A stretch of DNA of 46,925 bases from an uncultured Pseudomonadales bacterium (lineage in GTDB: Bacteria; Patescibacteriota; Microgenomatia; UBA1400; CAYNFZ01): contig CAYNMS010000008.1 in the NCBI GenBank assembly GCA_964398525.1, forward strand, positions 1 to 46,925, read 5' to 3'. Below the pieces are notes generated by a model. That model saw nothing but the letters and a program-made list of their open reading frames with translations. It ran no database searches and had not been told where the DNA came from. Below are positions 3,373 through 26,878 of this stretch, one piece after another. A program made the position numbers and the translations under genes. How positions within the stretch are numbered: position 1 is the stretch's first letter; each line of letters opens with the position of its first letter.

Positions 3373-3846
3373 TTACTCTTGGGCTAACCATTCGTCAATC
3401 GCAGCGGAGATGACAGAAGCGGTATAGCCCCTCTGGTAAAGGTAATTCTTGGCCTTGGCTTTGGTCTTGAAAAGGTTGGACTGTTTGAGCTTTGAAGCCC
3501 GTTTTTCAAGAAGCTTGACTGCGGAGGCAATTAGCTTGGATTGATCGGCGTTATTTAGATTTTGTAAGATAATTGGGTCCTCCACTCCAAGAAACTTTAG
3601 TTTTTGGCGAATAAAAGTAATTCCCTTGCCTTTGGAGATATAGCTGGTGACAAGTTGCGAGGCAAAAGCCTGATCATCCAAAAGCCCCATAGATTCAAGA
3701 TCGGCAACGATAGCGTCAATCTGGTCGGCTTGGGTGGTTTTGGAGCTTAAATACCGCTTCATTTCAGAGATGGAGCGGGAGCGGAATTTTAGATACCCGA
3801 CGGCCAGGTTAAGCAGTCTGGCTCTTGGGTTGGGATTGTTTGGCAT
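3373..3846 (-). CDS. recX: Recombination regulator RecX
   Basis: 157 aa with a RecX-like N-terminus ([19 protein letters not shown]), immediately downstream of recA. Confidence 0.8.
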
Positions 3847-4882
3847 GAATTTTTTCCCGAACCTTTTTCTCGATTTCTTCCATGAGCTTGGGCTTTTCCT
3901 CTAAGACAGCTTTGGCCCCTTCGCGGCCTTGAGCTAAAACTTCACCTTGGTACTTAAAGAAACTACCGGATTTTTCGATAACATCATGTTCGACGGCAAC
4001 GTCGACTATACCGCCAGATTTGGAAATGCCAGAGACGTTCATGATGTCGAATTCGGCAATTTTAAATGGTGGGGCGATTTTGTTTTTGACAACTTTGGCC
4101 CGGTGACGTGAGCCGACGATTTCGTCGCCATCTTGAATGTTGCCGATTTTACGCATATCGATTCTGACTGAGGCGTAGAACTTGAGAGCTTGGCCGCCAG
4201 TAGTAGTTTCGGGATTGCCAAACATAACGCCGATTTTCATACGCAGTTGGTTGGTAAAAATGACAACGGTTTTAGAGCGATTGATGGCACCGGCTAATTT
4301 GCGCATAGCTTGACTCATGAGCCGAGCCTGAAGACCGATAATGGAATCCCCCATCTCGCCTTCGATTTCAGCTTTGGGAACAAGGGCGGCGACCGAGTCG
4401 ATAACTAGGACGTCGATACCACCGGATCTGATCAGGGTTTCGGCGATTTCTAGTGCTTGCTCGCCGCTGTCAGGTTGAGACATGAGAAGACTGTCGAGAT
4501 TAACCCCGATGGCTTTGGCTCGAACAGGATCGAGGGCATGTTCGGCATCGATGAAAGCAGCGTCACCGCCTTTTTTCTGGGCTTCGGCGATGATATGAAG
4601 ACACAGGGTAGTTTTGCCGGAGGCTTCGGGTCCATAGATTTCCACGATACGGCCTCGAGGAACACCGCCGGCACCGAGGGCTAAGTCTAGGGCAAGGGAA
4701 CCGGTGGGAACGGTGGCAATATTTTTAAGAAGGGCAGCCTGATCGCCAAGACGCATAATGGAACCGGTACCGAATTGTTTTTCAATTTGTTGCATGGCAA
4801 TTTTGACGGCTTCGACACGCTGGCTATCACTGGGGTTTGGTTGTGGCATGACTACCTCTTGGTTTTTCTTAGGTCGACCCAT
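3809..4882 (-). CDS. recA: Recombinase RecA
   Basis: Walker A motif [10 protein letters not shown] plus FIDAEHALD and [15 protein letters not shown] lies upstream of the ATG at 4882. An internal ATG (MPQPNP...) is an alternative start. Confidence 0.95.
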
Positions 4883-4989
4883 ATATCTCCTTTTGGTGAT
4901 TTAGAGTAATATAAACATACTTTTCGGGTAATTACAACCAAATCTTTCTGGTTTTTATTTGGGTTTATTTCTAAGGTATAATGGGCAGA

Positions 4990-5019
4990 TTGACAAGTGA
5001 ATAGATTTGGGCGGAGAAT
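4990..5019 (+). promoter_or_regulatory. Candidate sigma70-like promoter for tRNA-Pro (TTGACA-18 nt-GAGAAT)
   Basis: Perfect -35 hexamer at 4990..4995 and a weak -10 at 5014..5019, 18 nt before the tRNA 5' end. Confidence 0.3.
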
Positions 5020-5036
5020 AAAAATCTCGGCCAAAA

Positions 5037-5107
5037 CGGGGTGTAGTATAGTGGTAGTATTTACGCATGGGGTGCGTAAGGTACAGGTTCGATTCCTGTC
5101 ACCCCGA
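5037..5107 (+). tRNA. tRNA-Pro (anticodon GGG)
   Basis: Folded by hand as a 71-nt cloverleaf: acceptor CGGGGTG/CACCCCG, anticodon stem TACGC/GCGTA, loop AT-GGG-GT with G37, T arm ACAGG-TTCGATT-CCTGT, discriminator A. C1-G72 is typical of tRNA-Pro. No CCA is encoded. Confidence 0.9.
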
Positions 5108-5611
5108 CACTTCGATTTCGCAAGGCGAATGAGAAGTGAGCTGAGCCTGCTGAAGCTCTGAACTATTTGAAGAGCCGAAGCTCATCTCACTAGCTTTGCT
5201 TCACTCAGTGTCTTCGACTCTTTGTTTTCGATTTTTGCTCAGGGTGTACGATGTTTCAACAAGCTCAACATCTTTGACCAATTATTGAATGAGTCGAAGA
5301 GCCTCGAGCGAAACGGGGTGAAGCCTAGAGGCACAGATATTGACTCCACTTAGAGTCTACCCCCTTTCTTATTTTGATTCGGTGGCTTGAGAAGTTGCAA
5401 CTTAGATTAGATTAAATCTATGTATGGCAATTGTGTGATTGGTTTAAATGTTTGCGCTAGCAATAAATATTGACAGAATTATCTCTCTCTTTAAGCTGAA
5501 AAGGAATCGGTCTCAAATTGTCTGTATTTGGTCTGTGATTTTGGGTAACACTTAACTACAGTGAAATATTCCCATGTTGAGAAGCTAGAAAAATCTAATT
5601 TGAGGATAAAT

Positions 5612-5620
5612 TGATATAAT
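5612..5620 (+). promoter_or_regulatory. Extended -10 element TGATATAAT overlapping the first ATG of the 216-aa ORF
   Basis: TGn+TATAAT read directly in the sequence. If it is used, the real start codon would be the ATG at 5640. Confidence 0.3.
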
Positions 5621-6269
5621 GCTTGTCCTAATTTTTGATATGGAAAAAAAATTAAAATTAAATTTGGGGGAAGTTGGATTCCCCCATGCTCATAGATTTA
5701 CTTCCTCTACTGGAATACCTGTACCTTGGAAGGGCTGTGATGGGGTCATTCTTCCCAGACTGATTATTTTTGAAGAGCCAGGAAGTGATTATGACATTCA
5801 TCATGAAATTTACTCAGAAAGAGTTAGGAACTGTAATGGAGAAATTTATTATGGTGATATCTATAAGCCGGAGTCTTTAGAGGAAATTCCACAAATGGGA
5901 CTGCTAGTTCTTGAGAATGTGGTTACAGATCCAGGACAAATCCAGAAAGATTGGTATGGCTTAATTAGATTTTTGGACTCTAAGATAGCACCTGGTGGAC
6001 TTGTATTATTTTCTGATCATATTTATCCTGGATCCTTATATCTTGGGGTTCCCCATGAGGAAATTAGAAAAGAAGTAAGTCAAAGTGACTCATTTGAGGT
6101 ATTGTATTTTGATCCACTGGAAAAGGGGACAGTTGAAGATCACACAAGAGCTCTGAATAATTGTAAAGAAATACTCAATTCTTTGGGCATGATGGATCAA
6201 GCACTCGATTCAGGACTTGATGAATTGCATAAAGTTAATTGGCATTGGTTGATATTGCAGAAAAAGTAG
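5619..6269 (+). CDS. Hypothetical protein (orphan) with weak class I methyltransferase-like motifs
   Basis: 216-aa ORF. IIFEEPGSDYD, LLVLENVV and KIAPGGLVLFSD resemble SAM-methyltransferase motifs I, IV and post-IV. This is motif-level resemblance only. Confidence 0.5.
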   Translation: MLVLIFDMEKKLKLNLGEVGFPHAHRFTSSTGIPVPWKGCDGVILPRLIIFEEPGSDYDIHHEIYSERVRNCNGEIYYGDIYKPESLEEIPQMGLLVLENVVTDPGQIQKDWYGLIRFLDSKIAPGGLVLFSDHIYPGSLYLGVPHEEIRKEVSQSDSFEVLYFDPLEKGTVEDHTRALNNCKEILNSLGMMDQALDSGLDELHKVNWHWLILQKK

Positions 6270-6292
6270 GCATTACTTTCCTTAATAATAAC

Positions 6293-6361
6293 CGACAAGA
6301 GTTTCTCCTGAGGGGATTTTTGATGTCCTTATACAAAAGTAGAATCTCTTGAGAAATCTGG
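6293..6361. repeat. Island repeat type C, copy 1
   Basis: 47 of 69 positions identical to 7041..7109 in an ungapped hand alignment. Shared blocks are AGGGGATTTTTG, AAGTAG and CTCTTGAG. Confidence 0.7.
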
Positions 6362-6364
6362 TTA

Positions 6365-6640
6365 TTACTTGTTCTTAAATTCTCGATCCACGCTTTGACT
6401 CAGAAACATTTTCATCAGAGATTGGTACGGCACATCTTTTTTATTAGCAAGTTGTTTAATTCTCATCAACAAATGAGACGGCAACCTTAAGGAAATAGAT
6501 TCTGTTGAAGGTTTTAAGTTTGATAAGTCTAATTCTACTGACTTTGACCAATCAACATAATCAGTTGAATCATGAGTTGCCCAAAACTCTCGCTCTTCAT
6601 CTTCGTTTTTGAATTGTGGAATTGGTTTAAGCTTTGTCAT
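6365..6640 (-). CDS. brnA: BrnA-type antitoxin (CopG/RHH-like)
   Basis: 91 aa. FKNEDEEREFWATHDSTDYVDW followed by a C-terminal RHH-like segment. Overlaps brnT by 14 nt. Confidence 0.8.
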   Translation of the reverse strand: MTKLKPIPQFKNEDEEREFWATHDSTDYVDWSKSVELDLSNLKPSTESISLRLPSHLLMRIKQLANKKDVPYQSLMKMFLSQSVDREFKNK

Positions 6641-6920
6641 AGATATTTTTCTCCTTTTTATTCATATCTCTTATGGAGATAATCCTAATTTTATTACTTC
6701 TGATTGTATATGAGACAAATAATTTACGATTATCATTTGTTTCCCCAAGAGCTTGAAAGCGCAATTCCTTTCCTGAGTGCTTTTCATCTAATACTGAAAG
6801 AAAAGGCTTATTAAAGAAAACTTCTTCAGCTTCCTTTGCGTCTACTTTATGTTTCTGCCAGTTTTTATCTTTGTTTCCAGTATCCCATTCAAAAGTAATT
6901 GGCCTCGGTAATTTCTTCAT
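6627..6920 (-). CDS. brnT: BrnT-type ribonuclease toxin (DUF497)
   Basis: FEWDTGNKDKNWQKHKVDAKEAEEVF signature. Start trimmed to MKKLPRP at 6920, because the track's upstream extension to 6983 runs through the non-coding repeat also found at 10218..10266. Confidence 0.8.
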   Translation of the reverse strand: MKKLPRPITFEWDTGNKDKNWQKHKVDAKEAEEVFFNKPFLSVLDEKHSGKELRFQALGETNDNRKLFVSYTIRSNKIRIISIRDMNKKEKNIYDKA

Positions 6921-6966
6921 TGCATTTAGTATATTATGATAATATACTGATGTCAATTTGCTATAG

Positions 6967-7016
6967 TTCCGAATTAAACACAAAGGTTCTACTTTAGTCC
7001 TACGCTAAGGCTTCGG
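6967..7016. repeat. Island repeat type A, copy 1
   Basis: Aligns with 10218..10266. The core AAAGGTTCTACTTTAGTCCTACGCT is identical over 25 nt (6982..7006 versus 10232..10256). Confidence 0.85.
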
Positions 7017-7040
7017 AATTACACAGTCGGTCACAATATT

Positions 7041-7109
7041 CGACTCATGATTCTCTCCAGGGGATTTTTGGAACTATTGTACATAAGTAGGACCTCTTGA
7101 GGGATCCAG
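7041..7109. repeat. Island repeat type C, copy 2
   Basis: See 6293..6361. It contains AAGTAGGACCT (7085..7095), whose reverse complement matches 10 of 11 positions of AGGTTCTACTT (6984..6994). Confidence 0.7.
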
Positions 7110-7133
7110 CGACATTTCTGATAATATCAATAT

Positions 7134-8276
7134 ATGTCAGATTCAAGCGAAGGTGTGCCCGCATCCTTAAGAGATAAAATTGTTAGAAGTATTGATGGTC
7201 AAAAGCCAAGCTGGAAAAATGTTTTGTCAAGAAAAGTTGTTGGACGAAGAAGTTCAGTAGATAGTTACCCTGAAAAGATCGAGGAGATACCTGCTACGGC
7301 ACCAGCTCAAGAGCAGTCAACTTCGACTGAAATTAACTTTTCTCCCATAATAGAGTACTTTTATGAGCTAGGGAAAAAGCCGTTAGTCTCCCTAGAGAAA
7401 ATGATTGGTATTCCTGAGGGAAGTCGTTCACAAGGCAATGTTATTGCTAATTTAGTGGCTAATAATTGTTTTGAGGAAGAGACGGAAACAAGCTTTATTG
7501 AACAAGGTTTAGATGGTCACCTAATTGGTGTGGGAGCTGCAAGCATTTTCTGTATGATTGAAGGATTTAGTGAATGTCAATCATTTACCGGTATTGATGT
7601 TCATCCTAGCCCCGTTGCTATTGGAAGAGTTATTACTGAATTACTGGGTGAGAATGACACCTTTGAAGATTTTTTTACTTCGTTAAGTGACGAAGACAAG
7701 CTCAAAGACAAACTAGAAGAGATGGGTTTACCAGAGGGATATTTTGATGAAACTGCACAGAGTGTTAAAGATGCAATTACTCAATACAATAAAGTCAAAA
7801 GCAGCTACCCAGGAATGCGAGCAGAGGGATTTAATGTTCACAATATGGACAAGAAAAATCTCTTTCCACTCAAGTCTATAGAGAGGCATTATAAAGAATT
7901 CATGAACTTAGCTAGATCAGGCAATATGCATTTTATCCAGGCAGATTTCCTTGATTCAACTGTATGGAGGGGCTTAAATCGAGCCGCTCCACAAATAAAA
8001 GATGCTAATAATTTAATATTTTGCAGTAATGCTATTGATCATGAATTCCGATCAAGGTTCGAGAAGTGGGACCAATGGTCTCAAAACGGAAAAGTTAATA
8101 TGGCAATCTCTGAACAAGTTGCTCTTGGAGGAGCGACTGCTTTTAACTTTGCAGATTGGGAATCCAGTAGATTCGTATTCACTTTGACAAGTCTAAGATA
8201 CGAGTTACAGCTAACAGATGAACCACCTGTTTATGGCTATGATGAACAACAAGGTCGTCCAACTCTTATTAACTAA
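7134..8276 (+). CDS. Hypothetical protein (orphan): disordered N-terminus plus divergent Rossmann/SAM-methyltransferase-like domain
   Basis: 380-aa ORF. LIGVGAASIF...FTGIDVHPSPVAI...MHFIQADFLD...NLIFCSNAIDHEF occur in the order of class I methyltransferase motifs I, II, III and IV. Confidence 0.55.
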   Translation: MSDSSEGVPASLRDKIVRSIDGQKPSWKNVLSRKVVGRRSSVDSYPEKIEEIPATAPAQEQSTSTEINFSPIIEYFYELGKKPLVSLEKMIGIPEGSRSQGNVIANLVANNCFEEETETSFIEQGLDGHLIGVGAASIFCMIEGFSECQSFTGIDVHPSPVAIGRVITELLGENDTFEDFFTSLSDEDKLKDKLEEMGLPEGYFDETAQSVKDAITQYNKVKSSYPGMRAEGFNVHNMDKKNLFPLKSIERHYKEFMNLARSGNMHFIQADFLDSTVWRGLNRAAPQIKDANNLIFCSNAIDHEFRSRFEKWDQWSQNGKVNMAISEQVALGGATAFNFADWESSRFVFTLTSLRYELQLTDEPPVYGYDEQQGRPTLIN

Positions 8277-8321
8277 AACTTATTCCCGTACTGAATTCCG
8301 AACCGGCTTGCGTATGAAGAG

Positions 8322-8383
8322 TTCTACCCCTTCGACTAACTGCGCTCGCTTAGGATCTATGACTTTCGTTCACGATATTCGAC
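8322..8383. repeat. Island repeat type B, copy 1
   Basis: 57 of 62 nt identical to 9769..9830 by hand alignment. Starts 45 nt after the stop of the 380-aa ORF. Confidence 0.9.
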
Positions 8384-8494
8384 TCAGAGAATAGATTAAG
8401 AATTCTCGATCTGGGATTTGGAAAATTTGATTTTTACCCAAATGTTGTGTGAAATTTTCATTCTTGAGGAAAGACTTTAAGAGGAGATTGGAAA

Positions 8495-9733
8495 TTGAGC
8501 CTCTTGAGGAATGTTAATTTGGCATATAATATTTTGGTGAAAACTAGATCTCTTAAAAGTAATCTTCAAGTTGCATATTTCTTATCATTTGTTAGTCAGT
8601 TATTTTTTCCAATCGCCATTTGGTTGTTTTTTTACTCCAAGTTTTTGGATTTTAAACAAATCGCTCTAATGACTGCTGTGGGAAGTATCGCCACCATACT
8701 TTTTGAAATCCCAACAGGTGCTTTTGCCGATATTGTGGGCAGGAAAAAAGCCATCGTATTATCTTATTTATTGTTTGCTGTGAGTATGTTGCTGACAGCA
8801 TATTCTCAAACTTTTATAGTCTTTGTTTTATTGGGAGTGGCGAGCGCTCTGGTTAATGCTTTGTATTCTGGAAGTCTTGAAGCACTTGTTTATGACACCT
8901 TAAAAGAGTCAGGGAGAGAAGTAGAATATGACCAAGTGATTTCTAGGATGGATGCTATCGCATGGTTGGGCCTGTTCGTGGGTTCAGTAACGGGAGGGTT
9001 TTTGTTTGCAGTTTCTTACAGATTACCTTTTTTAGCACAGGCTTTGATTACATTTCTGGCTTCTATTTTTGCACTTAAACTAAGCGAGCCTTCTATTGAT
9101 TCAGAGAAACATAAGTTGAGCGACTTTGTTGTTCAAAACACTAAGGGATTCAGAGAACTGTTTCACAGTCGAGCAACTACTAGATTGGTTATAATTTTTA
9201 TTACTATTGGTGCAGGTTATGATATTGCTGCTTCGATTCTTGGAATTTCTCAGGCAAAAGAATATGGAATTGCTCCTGAGATTGTGGGAATCATTTTTGC
9301 AGCCGGATATATCATTTCAGCATTAGCGTCTCATTTTTATCCAATGCTGAGATTAGTCTTAAATAACAAGGCAATTTTGTTGGTTGCTGTTACAGCTTTG
9401 CTTTCAAGCTTTTTGCTGGCTCAATTTGTTGGAGTTATGTTGGGAGCTGGATTAATTATTCTTCGGATTTCAAGTTCTACCTTGTTTAGAAATACTAGGT
9501 CAGTAATGCTAAATCCTTTCTTTTCTTCCAAAAATCGAGCTACCGCACTATCAACCATAAATTTGTTAACAATACTTCCCTACGCGTTGCTGGCTTATTT
9601 CATTGGAGACTATATGGATAAATCATCCCCAAATTCATTTGCTTTTCTTTTGGGCATAGGAATTGCATTTTCTCTATTGTTTACAGAAATACTTTTCTGG
9701 TTCGTTGAGAGATCAAAAAGATCTATTAATTAG
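8495..9733 (+). CDS. MFS transporter
   Basis: 412 aa with about 12 hydrophobic segments and the MFS loop motif GAFADIVGRKKA. TTG start preceded by GAGGAG. Confidence 0.85.
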   Translation: MSLLRNVNLAYNILVKTRSLKSNLQVAYFLSFVSQLFFPIAIWLFFYSKFLDFKQIALMTAVGSIATILFEIPTGAFADIVGRKKAIVLSYLLFAVSMLLTAYSQTFIVFVLLGVASALVNALYSGSLEALVYDTLKESGREVEYDQVISRMDAIAWLGLFVGSVTGGFLFAVSYRLPFLAQALITFLASIFALKLSEPSIDSEKHKLSDFVVQNTKGFRELFHSRATTRLVIIFITIGAGYDIAASILGISQAKEYGIAPEIVGIIFAAGYIISALASHFYPMLRLVLNNKAILLVAVTALLSSFLLAQFVGVMLGAGLIILRISSSTLFRNTRSVMLNPFFSSKNRATALSTINLLTILPYALLAYFIGDYMDKSSPNSFAFLLGIGIAFSLLFTEILFWFVERSKRSIN

Positions 9734-9768
9734 TTTAGTCTGGTAGACAGCCCAACTTAACTCAAATA

Positions 9769-9830
9769 TTCTACCCTTTCGACTCATTGCGCTCGCTCAG
9801 GATCTATGACTTTCGTTCACAATATTCGAC
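9769..9830. repeat. Island repeat type B, copy 2
   Basis: 57 of 62 nt identical to 8322..8383. Starts 35 nt after the MFS stop. Confidence 0.9.
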
Positions 9831-9889
9831 AGATCTCCTAAGGACTTTCAATTCTAATGCGAAATTGATAGAATCAAATCCTGACAGAC

Positions 9890-10207
9890 ATGCTTTTAGT
9901 GTATATAACCTGCGACAGTGTGGACCAAGCAAAAGGTATTGCTAATCATTTAATGGATAAGAGACTTTGTGCTTGTGTGAATATATTCCCAGAAATGCAA
10001 CCAATGTTCTTTTGGCCACCAAAGTCGGGCAAAATCGATGTGAGTAAAGAAGTGGTATTGATTGCCAAAACGGTTGAATCAAAATATCAGGAGTTGGAGA
10101 AAGAAGTGACTAAAATTCATAGTTACGAAGTGCCTTGTATCTTTGCCATTCCGGTGACCCACGTGGCCAAATCTTATTACGACTGGTTAGTTGGAGAAAT
10201 GGAATAG
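9890..10207 (+). CDS. cutA: Divalent-cation tolerance protein CutA
   Basis: 105 aa. RLCACVNIFP...FFW...VLIAKT...IHSYEVPCIFAIPV...YYDWL matches the CutA1 pattern. Confidence 0.85.
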   Translation: MLLVYITCDSVDQAKGIANHLMDKRLCACVNIFPEMQPMFFWPPKSGKIDVSKEVVLIAKTVESKYQELEKEVTKIHSYEVPCIFAIPVTHVAKSYYDWLVGEME

Positions 10208-10217
10208 GTTTCTCATC

Positions 10218-10266
10218 TTCGAACTAAACAAAAAGGTTCTACTTTAGTCCTACGCTGAAGCTTCGT
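10218..10266. repeat. Island repeat type A, copy 2
   Basis: See 6967..7016. Starts 10 nt after the cutA stop. Confidence 0.85.
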
Positions 10267-10297
10267 AAGGGCAATGCAATATCCGACCCTGTTTGAA

Positions 10298-10321
10298 ATG
10301 ACCCTAGGAAGGGTCATTTTT
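10298..10321 (+). terminator. Rho-independent terminator after cutA (ATGACCCT-AGGA-AGGGTCAT-TTTT)
   Basis: Perfect 8-bp stem, 4-nt loop and T run, read directly. Confidence 0.7.
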
Positions 10322-10467
10322 GTCTGGTACTTTCAGTTCTTTTAGAATGTGTTGTGAATTATTGCTTCTTGAGGAACTTTTTTTGAAAGGCTACTGGAAT
10401 CGAACCCTTCGAGAACACTTATCCCTAAACAATACCAAAAAGTGAAGAGAATTTTTCTGGGTTGAAA

Positions 10468-10815
10468 CTAAGTTTGTGGGTTCAACAAATGGTTCCATCC
10501 TTCTCTTTGTCTTTCGTCCAAATACAATCTGTGATAATTGCCAGCTTGAGTAACAATAAAAGGCTCGCTATCCCAAGATAGATAGAGATCCTCTTTTCTT
10601 TGTCGGGCCAAGTCTTTCATTGGTTCAACTATCAGACTAATTTGATCGCCTGCCATGACTTCCGAAACAATAGGGTCTTCTGAAGTCCCATCTCCTCTCA
10701 TTTTAATGCTTCGACCCTCTGACTCGTTAAACAGAAAATACTCTCTGTACTTAGAGTCTAATTTTTGAGTCAGTACTTGATCAATAATCCATCTTGGTGA
10801 TTCAATTGATCTCAT
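10468..10815 (-). CDS. Hypothetical protein (orphan)
   Basis: 115-aa ORF with no recognisable motif. It is the only long ORF in its region. Confidence 0.45.
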   Translation of the reverse strand: MRSIESPRWIIDQVLTQKLDSKYREYFLFNESEGRSIKMRGDGTSEDPIVSEVMAGDQISLIVEPMKDLARQRKEDLYLSWDSEPFIVTQAGNYHRLYLDERQREGWNHLLNPQT

Positions 10816-10942
10816 AAATAATTTCAGTTAAATAGTAATTGATGCATCAAAGTATATCATTCATACGTATCCAAAATCATGCTGAACTCGCCGGGTTTAT
10901 TCTGAATCAAATTATCAAATAAGGTCTTCTTTCATACACTAG

Positions 10943-11155
10943 CCTAGACAAAACAAGTCTGCTATTAGGCCTTTATTTATTTGGTTTCGCGGGCCTGAGA
11001 TAATTGAAAAAAGTTCTCCTAACTCAATTGCTTTTTTATTAGGTGCGGATATAGTGTTTGCTTTAATGCTAGAAAACGTAGTTTTCTGGTTTATTAGCAG
11101 AACTAGGAAGATTTCTAAATTGCTTGATAGATTGAAGATAATGGGTATGTTGTGA
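10943..11155 (+). pseudogene. 3' remnant of an MFS transporter paralog
   Basis: Hand translation gives ...EKSSPNSIAFLLGADIVFALMLENVVFWFISRTRKISK...*. This aligns with the C-terminus of the 8495..9733 protein (DKSSPNSFAFLLGIGIAFSLLFTEILFWFVERSKRSIN), 16 of 35 identical. There is a TAG upstream at 10940 and no start or N-terminal domains. Confidence 0.65.
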
Positions 11156-11241
11156 ATGAATTTTAAATGTTTGGATGTAAGGCAAAGGCTGAGACTAGAC
11201 CTGCAAACTAGAAAAAATTTATTTTGTGTAAAATGATGTAG

Positions 11242-11988
11242 ATGAAGATTACACTTTTACAGTGGAATGTGTGGACAAAGGAAAAGCCAGAAAAGGTGGT
11301 AAGTTTGATCAGATCCGTTGACCCTGATATTGCTTGTTTGCAAGAACTTACGATTAGACCTAAATCAAGTGGTTTGTTGGATGTGCCCGAGTTTTTGGCA
11401 AATGAACTGGAATATAAACACCACTACATCACTGCCCATGAGTGGCAAACTGATGCGGGACCTAAAAAGCAGGGAAATGGGATATTTTCGAGATTTGCAA
11501 TTGAGAATAAAAGACACAAATTTGTTCAAGTACCGTCTAAGGAAATTTCGAGAGATTATTCAGACGAAGGCAGAGTGTTGGTGAAGGGAGATATACTATT
11601 AGATAAAAAGAGAATAACGGTAGTAACAACTCATTTGTCATATACAGACAGATTTGTTGAGAATGAGAAAAAATTGACAGAAGAGGAAAACCTAATTAGA
11701 GAGTTGAAAACAATTAAGGGAAAGTTGATTTTTGCAGGAGATTTAAATACGACAGAGAATTCTTACTTGGTAAGACAATTGGATCAACTGATGGTTTCAG
11801 CCGGACCAGACTATGGCAACAAAACTTGGACCACCAAACCATTTGAATATATGGGGTTTGTGGAAGATAAGTTGGCATGGAGACTTGATTATGTGTTTGT
11901 CAGCAAAGACATAAAAGTACTTAAGAGTAAAATAATTGATACTAACTTTTCGGACCACTTGCCGATTTTGGTGGAAGTGGAGATTTAG
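11242..11988 (+). CDS. Endonuclease/exonuclease/phosphatase (EEP) family protein
   Basis: 248 aa. LLQWNVW...DIACLQE...GDLN...SDHLPILVEV are EEP catalytic motifs. Confidence 0.85.
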   Translation: MKITLLQWNVWTKEKPEKVVSLIRSVDPDIACLQELTIRPKSSGLLDVPEFLANELEYKHHYITAHEWQTDAGPKKQGNGIFSRFAIENKRHKFVQVPSKEISRDYSDEGRVLVKGDILLDKKRITVVTTHLSYTDRFVENEKKLTEEENLIRELKTIKGKLIFAGDLNTTENSYLVRQLDQLMVSAGPDYGNKTWTTKPFEYMGFVEDKLAWRLDYVFVSKDIKVLKSKIIDTNFSDHLPILVEVEI

Positions 11989-26161: not shown

Positions 26162-26878
26162 TTATTTAGTCTTTTTGGTTGATGAAGTTTTTTTGGCTGG
26201 AGCTTTTTTTACATGGGAAGGAGTAGTTTTAGCTTGAGGTTTGGGTTGAGGTTTGGGTTGAGGTTTGGGTTGAGGTTTGGGTTGAGGTTTGGGTTGGGTT
26301 TTGGGTTGGGTTTTGGGTTGGGTTTTGGGTTGAGGTTTGGGTTGGGTTTTGGTGTCAGGTTTGGTGGTAACAGTTGGCTGGGGTGTGGATTGTTTGGTGT
26401 CGAGCTTAATACCTTTGATATCGGCGACTCGGCGAATGTGGCGGAGAGCTTCAAAAGTGGCATAAACGTTGCTAGCTTGATTGTTGCTACCCAGGATTTT
26501 GCTGACAATGTTTTTGACACCGGCGGCTTCGACGACGGCACGAACAGCACCGCCAGCAATGACTCCAGTACCAACCGGGGCTGGTTTGAGAAGAACTATG
26601 GCTGCACCTTTTTTAACTTGAACCTGAAAAGGGATGGTGTCGCCGTGAAGAGGCACGGTAAACATGCGTTTTTTAGCCCGGCGGGAAGCTTTTTGGATGG
26701 AGGAGAGAACATCAGGGCCTTTGCCTAAACCAACGCCAACTTTACCCTTTTTATCCCCGACGACGACGACGACGGAAAAGCCTATTGAATTACCACCTTT
26801 GGTTTTTTTGGAGACACGGTTGACTTGGACAACTTTTTCTTCGAATTCTTGGGGTTGAGATGAATTGTATCTGGCCAT
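26162..26878 (-). CDS. rpsE: 30S ribosomal protein S5 with PKPQ/PKTQ repeat tail
   Basis: The S5 core ([24 protein letters not shown]...) is followed by a low-complexity extension of about 75 aa. Confidence 0.93.
26234..26353. repeat. 12-bp tandem repeat, about 10 units (TTGAGGTTTGGG / TTGGGTTTTGGG)
   Basis: Read directly. Encodes (PKPQ/PKTQ)n in the S5 tail on the minus strand. Confidence 0.95.

Follow-up and report, generated by a model that had tools for sequence, protein, structure and literature searches.

Oriented non-coding repeats separate single-gene modules in a tRNA-Pro/recA variable region

Two copies of a 62-nucleotide (nt) repeat, type B, lie behind unrelated neighbouring genes in contig CAYNMS010000008.1 of GenBank assembly GCA_964398525.1. 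We analysed the whole 46,925-nt stretch (the window) and find that type B is one form of an oriented, non-coding boundary element that separates single-gene modules in the variable region beside tRNA-Pro and recA. We propose that the repeated units are att-like joints of inserted single-gene modules, a reading to which we give a probability of roughly 40%. The main rival is that they are regulatory DNA of the gene downstream. Both readings could hold at once, since a regulatory module that is repeated may also serve as a substrate for recombination. The elements are better conserved between related bacteria than the protein genes around them, and this points to an undescribed means of marking or joining gene modules.

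If the units are joints, an incoming module carrying one unit would recombine with a resident unit, and the insert would end up between two direct copies. Repeated rounds would build an array. What would catalyze the exchange? One candidate is a site-specific recombinase whose gene lies elsewhere; another is RecA, acting on the conserved junctions once foreign DNA has been taken up.

Results

Type B belongs to a larger repeat family

A sequence-only reading of the window had reported the type B copies at 8322-8383 and 9769-9830 as 57/62 identical, and so they are (blastn E=7e-19); the sequence it quoted for 8322-8383 is also confirmed. As described there, they start 45 and 35 nt past the stops of two open reading frames (ORFs), a 380-amino-acid (aa) orphan ending at 8276 and an MFS transporter ending at 9733. 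Each copy contains two direct TTCGAC motifs 47 nt apart (8331 and 8378; 9778 and 9825). Ungapped identity in the flanks drops to 7/30 upstream and 6/30 downstream, the random level. Since the flanks are unrelated, both boundaries of type B are sharp. Conservation between them is far above chance, as the blastn match and the related copies in other genomes attest.

Is the repeat coding? The same reading held that every frame contains stops. This is wrong: frame +1 is open across both copies (B1 and B2), and frame +0 is also open in B2. A 58-aa ORF (8218-8394) runs through B1 and has been annotated by gene callers on some public contigs. The verdict that type B is non-coding stands despite the open frame, because four of the five B1/B2 substitutions are nonsynonymous when the aligned copies are translated in it, type A and type B copies differ by indels, and a protein search with the translated repeat found no match. 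On these grounds we rejected a coding sequence or coding micro-exon.

The idea that type B is an entity of its own did not survive. Both of its ends are common to a second long form, type A (GGTTCTAC at the start, TCACAATATTCGAC at the end), and its 3' half is a unit of about 28 nt that is also found alone. The shared core, about 28-33 nt long, has the consensus AAAnGTTCTAC-TTTC-N12-CGAC-T. The short form, which occurs at 6262-6297, joins the two ends directly. The long forms A and B are this short unit with 32-35 nt inserted between TAC and TTTC, and they also carry an A-rich leader beginning 0-34 nt past the upstream stop codon. The ends of the unit are conserved and the length of its centre varies (0, 32 or 35 nt). 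The 3' halves of both B copies (8357-8384 and 9804-9831) and of one A copy (7018-7045) are themselves copies of the short unit. Spacing from TAC to CGAC is exactly 16 nt in 7/7 well-preserved units from four genomes. The members of the family in the window are:

5332-5394, + strand: first junction after the tRNA, read directly; its two adjoining relics (5332-5383) lie 230 nt downstream of the tRNA
5332-5346, + strand: R-like fragment CACAGATATTGACTC in the first junction
5352-5383, + strand: degenerate short unit GAGTCTACCCCC-TTTC-TTATTTTGATT-CGG in the first junction
5386-5394, + strand: promoter-block motif CTTGAGAAG in the first junction
6262-6297, + strand: S-type short unit with degenerate 5' end, GCATTAC-TTTCCTTAATAATAAC-CGAC-A (nhmmer short-unit model E=8e-8)
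6966-7047, + strand: type A copy 1 (A1), with leader block CGAATTAAACACAAAGG, TTCTAC, 32-nt insert and S-like 3' unit (nhmmer E=2e-20)
7018-7045, + strand: S-like 3' unit of A1, ATTACAC-AGTCGGTCACAATATT-CGAC-T
8297-8386, + strand: type B copy 1 (B1), with leader 8297-8321 and 62-nt core 8322-8383 (nhmmer E=3e-15)
8357-8384, + strand: S-like 3' unit of B1, CTATGAC-TTTCGTTCACGATATT-CGAC-T (position weight matrix (PWM) score 37.5)
9750-9833, + strand: type B copy 2 (B2), with leader 9750-9768 and 62-nt core 9769-9830 (nhmmer E=5e-17)
9804-9831, + strand: S-like 3' unit of B2 (PWM score 37.5)
10218-10290, + strand: type A copy 2 (A2), with its 5' 49 nt intact and a deletion of about 8 nt in the 3' unit (…GCAATATCCGAC) (nhmmer E=3e-15)

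Further copies therefore exist: four long and three short copies or relics in the window, and others in three genomes. The seven in the window (relics at 5332-5383 included) lie within 5.2 kb, all on the + strand, and scans by hidden Markov model and PWM found zero copies in the remaining 41.7 kb. They sit at nearly every gene boundary of a low-GC island and at its tRNA-proximal edge, and the genes between them are unrelated. The + orientation is held even beside a reversed BrnT/BrnA toxin-antitoxin module and upstream of a minus-strand gene. A1 and A2 are identical at 44/49 positions in their 5' part (A2 10220-10268). The closest pairs are nested: B1 and B2 surround the MFS gene only, A1 and A2 surround the series 380-aa orphan, B1, MFS, B2 and CutA, and a pair of downstream blocks (6287-6358 and 7035-7106) surrounds the toxin-antitoxin genes.

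The short unit at 6262-6297 scores 30.7 by PWM against a shuffle maximum of 18.1, and it matches positions 9-30 of a contig from another genome (L112, below) at 20/22 positions. The stop codon of a 216-aa ORF (6267-6269) falls within it. The two fragments at 5332-5346 and 5352-5364 that the first reading noticed are present, but singly they are at chance (8 matches against 6.4 expected; 81 against 63). We take them as meaningful because of their position and because a like arrangement occurs at the same place in a relative, L061.

The unit in other genomes

We recovered the unit in three other genomes: L061 (GCA_042576625.1), L062/L063 (one organism) and L112 (a contig from SRR18766856). Its neighbours there are unrelated. 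In L061 it follows an unrelated 361-aa orphan, and a GGGTTCTACCC...CTCTCTTGAGGAATG junction lies directly after tRNA-Pro, like the first junction of the window. In L062/L063 it lies within the tRNA-Pro variable region, upstream of a glycosylase gene. L112 has a type A copy (E=3e-18) after a 435-aa orphan and a decayed copy (1556-1634) after a 59%-identical homologue of the 380-aa orphan. The L112 contig ends inside a unit, which fits the behaviour of assemblers at a multi-copy repeat.

How well is the unit conserved? Between L061 and L062 the recA, rny and hup genes are about 75% identical. The unit is identical at 34/37 positions (core 30/33), and the flanks of the core, at 9/34 and 8/32, are random. 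It is the sole alignable non-coding stretch between these genomes, and it is not syntenic. Between the window and L112 the 380-aa gene is 71% identical and the type A element 82-89%. Conservation beyond that of the genes points either to strong constraint or to exchange between lineages. A short non-coding site at 91-92% identity between genomes with about 75% identical genes must have some role.

The setting is also conserved. tRNA-Pro stands next to recA in five relatives (L060, L061, L062, L065 and L068). Relatives with about 80% identical RecA keep the recA-recX-rny-hup synteny, and their gene content past the tRNA is wholly different. Three genomes, those of the window, L061 and L062, have the unit in the variable stretch adjoining this conserved anchor, among unrelated neighbours.

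The neighbourhood of recA and tRNA-Pro is a hotspot in relatives (L062 8383-8646; L065 2628-3771; L062 12207-12569). In one relative a gene for a GIY-YIG endonuclease separates tRNA-Pro from recA; in another an IS3-type transposase gene lies past the tRNA, and bAvd/23S-rRNA-IVP-type genes are found near ABC-2 transporter genes. A reversed tRNA-like end, TGGTGGAGAATCGAAC, similar to the fragment at 10393-10410 of the window (below), directly follows tRNA-Pro in L062 (8265-8240). Downstream of the 380-aa homologue in L112, two neighbouring small ORFs of 65 and 100 aa (4594-5208), like one gene split by a stop, look like a pseudogene inside the array.

Wider searches added nothing to these copies. 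About 30 public contigs with identical RecA, 380-aa or MFS proteins (about 20 sequencing runs, three accession series) are the same strain, 99.9-100% identical. The pattern TTCTAC-N30-50-TCACRATATTCGAC gave 22 single matches each in GTDB representatives and JGI metagenomes, all chance 14-mer matches; it requires long-form ends and is too strict for the L061, L062 and L112 copies, so this is no proof of absence elsewhere. Copies of the B subtype turned up nowhere outside this window. Viral-contig scans gave chance matches only, one recurrent match lying inside an 854-aa phage gene, and plasmid and phage BLAST returned nothing relevant. Literature searches found no description of such repeats in genomes of the candidate phyla radiation (CPR).

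The island and its genes

The copies are confined to a low-GC island running from 5109 to about 11240, with a GC content of 0.34-0.40 against 0.45-0.50 elsewhere. Its landmarks are:

3809-4882, minus strand: recA (Pfam), on the other side of tRNA-Pro, with recX
5037-5108, + strand: tRNA-Pro(GGG) (ARAGORN and Rfam), a fixed anchor at the proximal edge of the island
11003-11121, + strand: 3'-end remnant of a second MFS gene (119-nt blastn match to 9614-9731, 63% identical, E=1e-6)

GC content falls from 0.48 to 0.34-0.40 directly after the tRNA gene, and at third codon positions (GC3) it is 0.29-0.41 in island genes against 0.42-0.53 in core genes. The gene order is a 216-aa orphan, the reversed BrnT/BrnA pair, the 380-aa orphan, the MFS transporter, CutA1 and a reversed 115-aa orphan. 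The orphans have no match in Pfam, NCBIfam, PADLOC or PDB sequences. The remnant of the second MFS gene is intergenic, 1.3 kb downstream of the intact one; with the block behind it (to 11175) it marks a decayed second MFS module at the distal edge of the array. Low GC3, orphans, a toxin-antitoxin pair and a gene remnant make the island look foreign.

Housekeeping genes lie on the distal side of the array, with the rpoBC/ribosomal-protein cluster from 18.8 kb on. The best named relatives of the RecA protein are in metagenome-assembled genomes of Patescibacteria or Microgenomates at 72-76% identity, and the closest of all are about 80% identical. Judged by these neighbours and by gene content, the host is probably a small-genome Patescibacteria/CPR bacterium.

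The 380-aa ORF (7134-8276) has four homologues among 5.8 billion proteins, at 58-63% identity, each in a different genomic context and one of them on a 1.2-Mb contig. Its invariant motifs, IGVGAAS, FTGIDxHPSP and NLIFxSNxIxH, look like those of a class I methyltransferase dependent on S-adenosylmethionine, and the 216-aa ORF (5619-6269) has a similar PGG-containing motif. We also considered the 380-aa protein as a divergent sigma factor that reads the repeats. A weak phmmer match to sigma-A regions 1.2 and 2 (E~0.1) was lost with a five-sequence profile and with Pfam, and this candidate was dropped.

Two short resemblances to tRNA-Pro lie in the island. At 10393-10410 on the minus strand, near the distal end of the array, the 11-mer GGTTCGATTCC (10396-10406) is identical to the T-loop region of tRNA-Pro (5086-5096) in inverse orientation. 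ARAGORN called no tRNA there; the 11-mer may be a partial tRNA from an old integration event. Some 200 nt downstream of the tRNA, AACGGGGTG (5312-5320) repeats its 5' end (5035-5043), a 9-mer match near chance for a window of this size.

Two features of the housekeeping region stand apart. The ribosomal protein S5 homologue (26162-26878, minus strand) has a low-complexity C-terminal tail made of (K/T)PQP-type repeats; in the DNA, a 12-nt unit is repeated in tandem about 17 times there (26190-26388). GC skew is positive on the + strand throughout the window (+0.08 to +0.5), including 18800-46600. The coding strand of the rpoBC/ribosomal cluster is C-rich because the cluster is minus-encoded under this skew; operons with high expression do not usually have a C-rich coding strand.

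Blocks downstream of the unit

Type B is one block of a longer modular junction that consists of the unit, a terminator-like hairpin and a promoter block. The blocks that follow the unit in each junction are a weak T-run hairpin (a strong terminator after A2), a TGTTGTGAA block and a CTCTTGAGG block:

6287-6358, + strand: terminator-like hairpin with T-run (6304-6322) and CTCTTGAGA block
7035-7133, + strand: junction tail with weak T-run hairpin, CTCTTGAGG (7094-7102) and promoter
7097-7125, + strand: promoter-like TTGAGG-17-GATAAT, with the ATG at 7134
8441-8513, + strand: two blocks ahead of the MFS gene, AATGTTGTGTGAAATTTTCATTCTTGAGGAA (8441-8471) and a second CTCTTGAGGAATG (8501-8513)
10296-10321, + strand: strong hairpin AAATGACCCT-AGGA-AGGGTCATTT with T-run, 9 nt past A2, present in minimum-energy and centroid folds
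10346-10376, + strand: second copy of the block, AATGTGTTGTGAATTATTGCTTCTTGAGGAA, with no + strand gene after it
11145-11175, + strand: third, weaker copy of the TGTTGTGAA block, read directly

The first of these, 6287-6358, recurs in direct orientation at 7035-7106 (69% identity across 72 nt by blastn, E=6e-8), and the two bracket the reversed BrnT/BrnA module. The 8441-8471 block is 81% identical to 10346-10376, and CTCTTGAGGAATG is identical to L061 3853-3841. The folded hairpin at 10296-10321 is likely an intrinsic terminator. A promoter homologous to that at 7097-7125 is found in L112 at 5283-5328 (TCTTGAGG-18-TATAAT-8-ATG). The CTCTTGAGG block occupies the -35 region of promoter-like sites such as that at 7097-7125, but it may not be a -35 box, since its distance varies (about 18-24 nt).

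Several promoter-like sites of island genes have a TG-extended -10 box (TGATAATAT, TGCTATAAT and TGATAAAAT, at 7097-7136, L112 5283-5328 and L061 3850-3805, minus strand). A start codon only 6-9 nt past these boxes suggests leaderless or near-leaderless mRNAs. The brnT promoter (6923-6960, minus strand) is a near-consensus TTGACA-17-TATACT that overlaps a palindrome, TAGTATATTATGATAATATACTA, probably the antitoxin operator.

Structure and known classes

Does the repeat act as an RNA? The suggestion that it might be part of a 3' untranslated region (3'-UTR) or an independent small RNA found no support in folding or covariation. DNA folds of the four long copies on both strands were no better than shuffles (z -1.6 to +1.3), and RNAalifold on five copies gave 0 consensus pairs on either strand. 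A match to a known Rfam element was also looked for, and none overlaps any copy. In Rfam 15 only tRNA-Pro passes; no copy was overlapped at E<=10 in the window or at E<=1 in L061, L062 and L112. A structured RNA or known RNA family was rejected accordingly.

A tRNA-derived att repeat was rejected because the repeats do not match 5037-5108: when every intergenic region of the island was compared with the window by blastn (word size 7), the repeat showed no similarity to tRNA-Pro. The one tRNA-like fragment, the 11-mer at 10396-10406 on the minus strand, is unrelated to the repeat. A miniature inverted-repeat transposable element or insertion sequence end was set aside since no inverted pair involves the copies, all of which are direct. 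Resemblances to a DnaA box, parS, a LexA box, dif and a com-box were weak by eye and were dropped. The units keep a fixed 16-nt spacing between TAC and CGAC boxes that are non-canonical for a sigma-70 promoter, and a sigma-70 consensus scan flagged a B2-specific site (9744-9772) only. A regular-expression search of 5109-11400 on both strands for RYYYAAC...GTTRRRY pairs 50-150 nt apart found none at any repeat. It yielded two attC-like candidate intervals, one inside the 115-aa coding region and one spanning the start of the first gene. No integrase gene or remnant came up when the proteins of the island were scanned with Pfam, NCBIfam and PADLOC.

Discussion

Why should the units be joints? 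The pairs are nested, the copies share one orientation and sharp edges, and they begin at or just past a stop codon among unrelated neighbours in a compositionally foreign, variable locus that has a fixed anchor. From these features and the variable centre we infer recombination at the units. Conserved ends around a centre of variable length, as in other recombination sites, also support joints.

Several points weigh against this account. No recombinase, integrase or transposase is encoded in the 47-kb window. The unit has no hairpin, and it lacks an inverted-repeat core of the kind that tyrosine recombinases typically use. Five positions differ between B1 and B2, so any insertion was not recent. 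Only about 12 copies were recovered in four genomes, and no crossover point could be mapped. The first reading had also proposed that units are joined head to tail by recombination. This may be so; the fragments near 5340 that prompted it are at chance level, and the roughly 30 same-strain contigs are all collinear, with no excision, empty site, circle junction or reshuffling among them. Finally, the 380-aa gene has a promoter region (GGATC..GAC.TTTC...ATAATATC) that the 3' half of the unit resembles, and the 3' unit is decayed in two copies that lack a co-oriented downstream gene (A2 and L112 1556-1634).

These last two points fit a regulatory role. The units would then be a promoter or operator of the downstream gene, in which GTTCTAC and CGAC boxes stand a fixed 16 nt apart behind an A-rich tract. 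An alternative sigma factor, or a regulator specific to the lineage, would read them, and the repeats would be a common control signal of several island genes. We regard this as possible, though on balance rather unlikely. The spacing is exact in all the well-preserved units, of which 6/7 have a co-oriented gene 60-230 nt downstream, and conservation ends right past CGAC(T), where the transcription start would fall. Promoters of the extracytoplasmic function type often have CGAC or CGTC as their -10 box. However, conservation covers all 28 nt, spacer included, an unusual pattern in a promoter of two boxes. Three window copies are followed within 10-20 nt by a terminator-like hairpin (6304-6322, 7052-7070 and 10296-10321). 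The downstream genes have promoter-like sites of their own nearer the start codon. Clear promoters of this organism are canonical, as that of brnT illustrates. The 5' halves of A2 and L112 1556-1634 are still conserved with no gene after them, and the copy at 6262-6297 points toward the 3' end of a gene that runs the other way.

Could the element instead act in the transcript of the upstream gene, as unstructured RNA in a 3'-UTR, where Rho might load or a small RNA or RNA-binding protein might attach? Most copies do begin 0-34 nt past a co-oriented stop, ahead of a terminator-like hairpin, and the + strand is pyrimidine-rich, with B copies that fold no better than shuffles (z +1.0 to +1.25). 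Yet no co-oriented gene precedes A1 or the L062 copy, and neither strand shows conserved structure or covariation or has an Rfam match. Rho loading sites lack sequence conservation, whereas the genomes compared here agree at 91-92% in the core and at 75% in coding DNA. We consider this account improbable.

A functionless local duplication scar or chance similarity is very unlikely. The B subtype was recovered from this window only, and scans of reference genomes, metagenomes and viral contigs gave chance matches only, but the B1/B2 match is far too strong for chance (E=7e-19). Homologous units with sharp edges, unrelated neighbours and identity above that of coding DNA in three other genomes contradict it.

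Integron attC sites, whether in a cluster without integrase (CALIN) or in a chromosomal integron array with its integrase gene beyond the window, are barely credible: the layout is integron-like (single ORFs, co-oriented sites starting at the stop codon, a reversed toxin-antitoxin cassette, orphans) and the leader block CTAAACAMAAAGGTT resembles AAAACAAAGTT, which we take to be the attI1 crossover region, but both defining structural features fail, with no RYYYAAC...GTTRRRY pair with paired ends at any junction, single-strand folds no better than shuffles and a consensus fold of zero pairs on both strands, and an intI-like gene is absent from the window.

The comparison with integrons is still instructive. 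As in integron arrays and CALIN, mostly single, unrelated and often orphan genes are each followed by a short co-oriented site at or near the stop codon; the ends of the site are conserved and its centre varies in length, a toxin-antitoxin module is reversed, and a fixed anchor adjoins. Unlike integrons, the island has sites with no imperfect palindrome, hairpin or R''/R' core, and the window has no IntI, attI or Pc. The modules bring promoter-like blocks with them, and the anchor is a tRNA gene.

In the hyperplastic regions of T4-type phages, promoter-bearing repeats flank ORFs (PeSL cassettes). Our island is like these in that intergenic modules of a promoter and a terminator-like hairpin flank unrelated small genes, and homology could drive their shuffling. 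It differs in being part of a bacterial chromosome; the conserved unit is not the stem-loop, and we saw no mini-circles or shuffling. The REP/BIME, ERIC, BOX, RUP and Correia families are likewise short, non-coding, multi-copy and intergenic. They are palindromic or have terminal inverted repeats and occur genome-wide in both orientations, whereas this family has no inverted repeats, keeps one orientation and is clustered in one variable locus.

Tycheposons in Prochlorococcus are tRNA-anchored additive islands built by serial site-specific integration (bioRxiv 10.1101/2020.12.28.424599). The resemblance lies in a position adjoining a tRNA, a streamlined genome, direct repeats between successive inserts, decay of older inserts and atypical composition. 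In islands of that type the repeats are partial tRNA 3' ends, and integrase genes or fragments are present. Our repeat, by contrast, is not similar to tRNA-Pro, no integrase was seen and the inserts are single genes of 0.5-1.5 kb. Integrase-less elements that accrete beside integrative conjugative elements are another example of an additive island.

A more specific version of the joint model seems to us doubtful but consequential. It is a cassette system distinct from integrons, in ultra-small CPR-like bacteria, in which single-gene modules with their own promoters would be serially inserted beside tRNA-Pro/recA at an oriented, double-stranded GTTCTAC-N16-CGAC site of about 30 bp, through a recombinase encoded elsewhere or homology-driven exchange following DNA uptake. 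Recognized mobile elements are few in ultra-small CPR bacteria, and the gain and loss of their accessory genes are poorly understood. Were such a system real, it would be a dedicated locus for sampling accessory genes in reduced genomes.

If the unit is a recombination joint, it would define a new cassette-capture locus and offer a handle with which to search for the enzyme. If it is a promoter or operator, it would define a regulon of accessory genes that is specific to the lineage. With the 28-nt motif in hand, the choice between joint and regulatory element can be tested directly in existing metagenomes.

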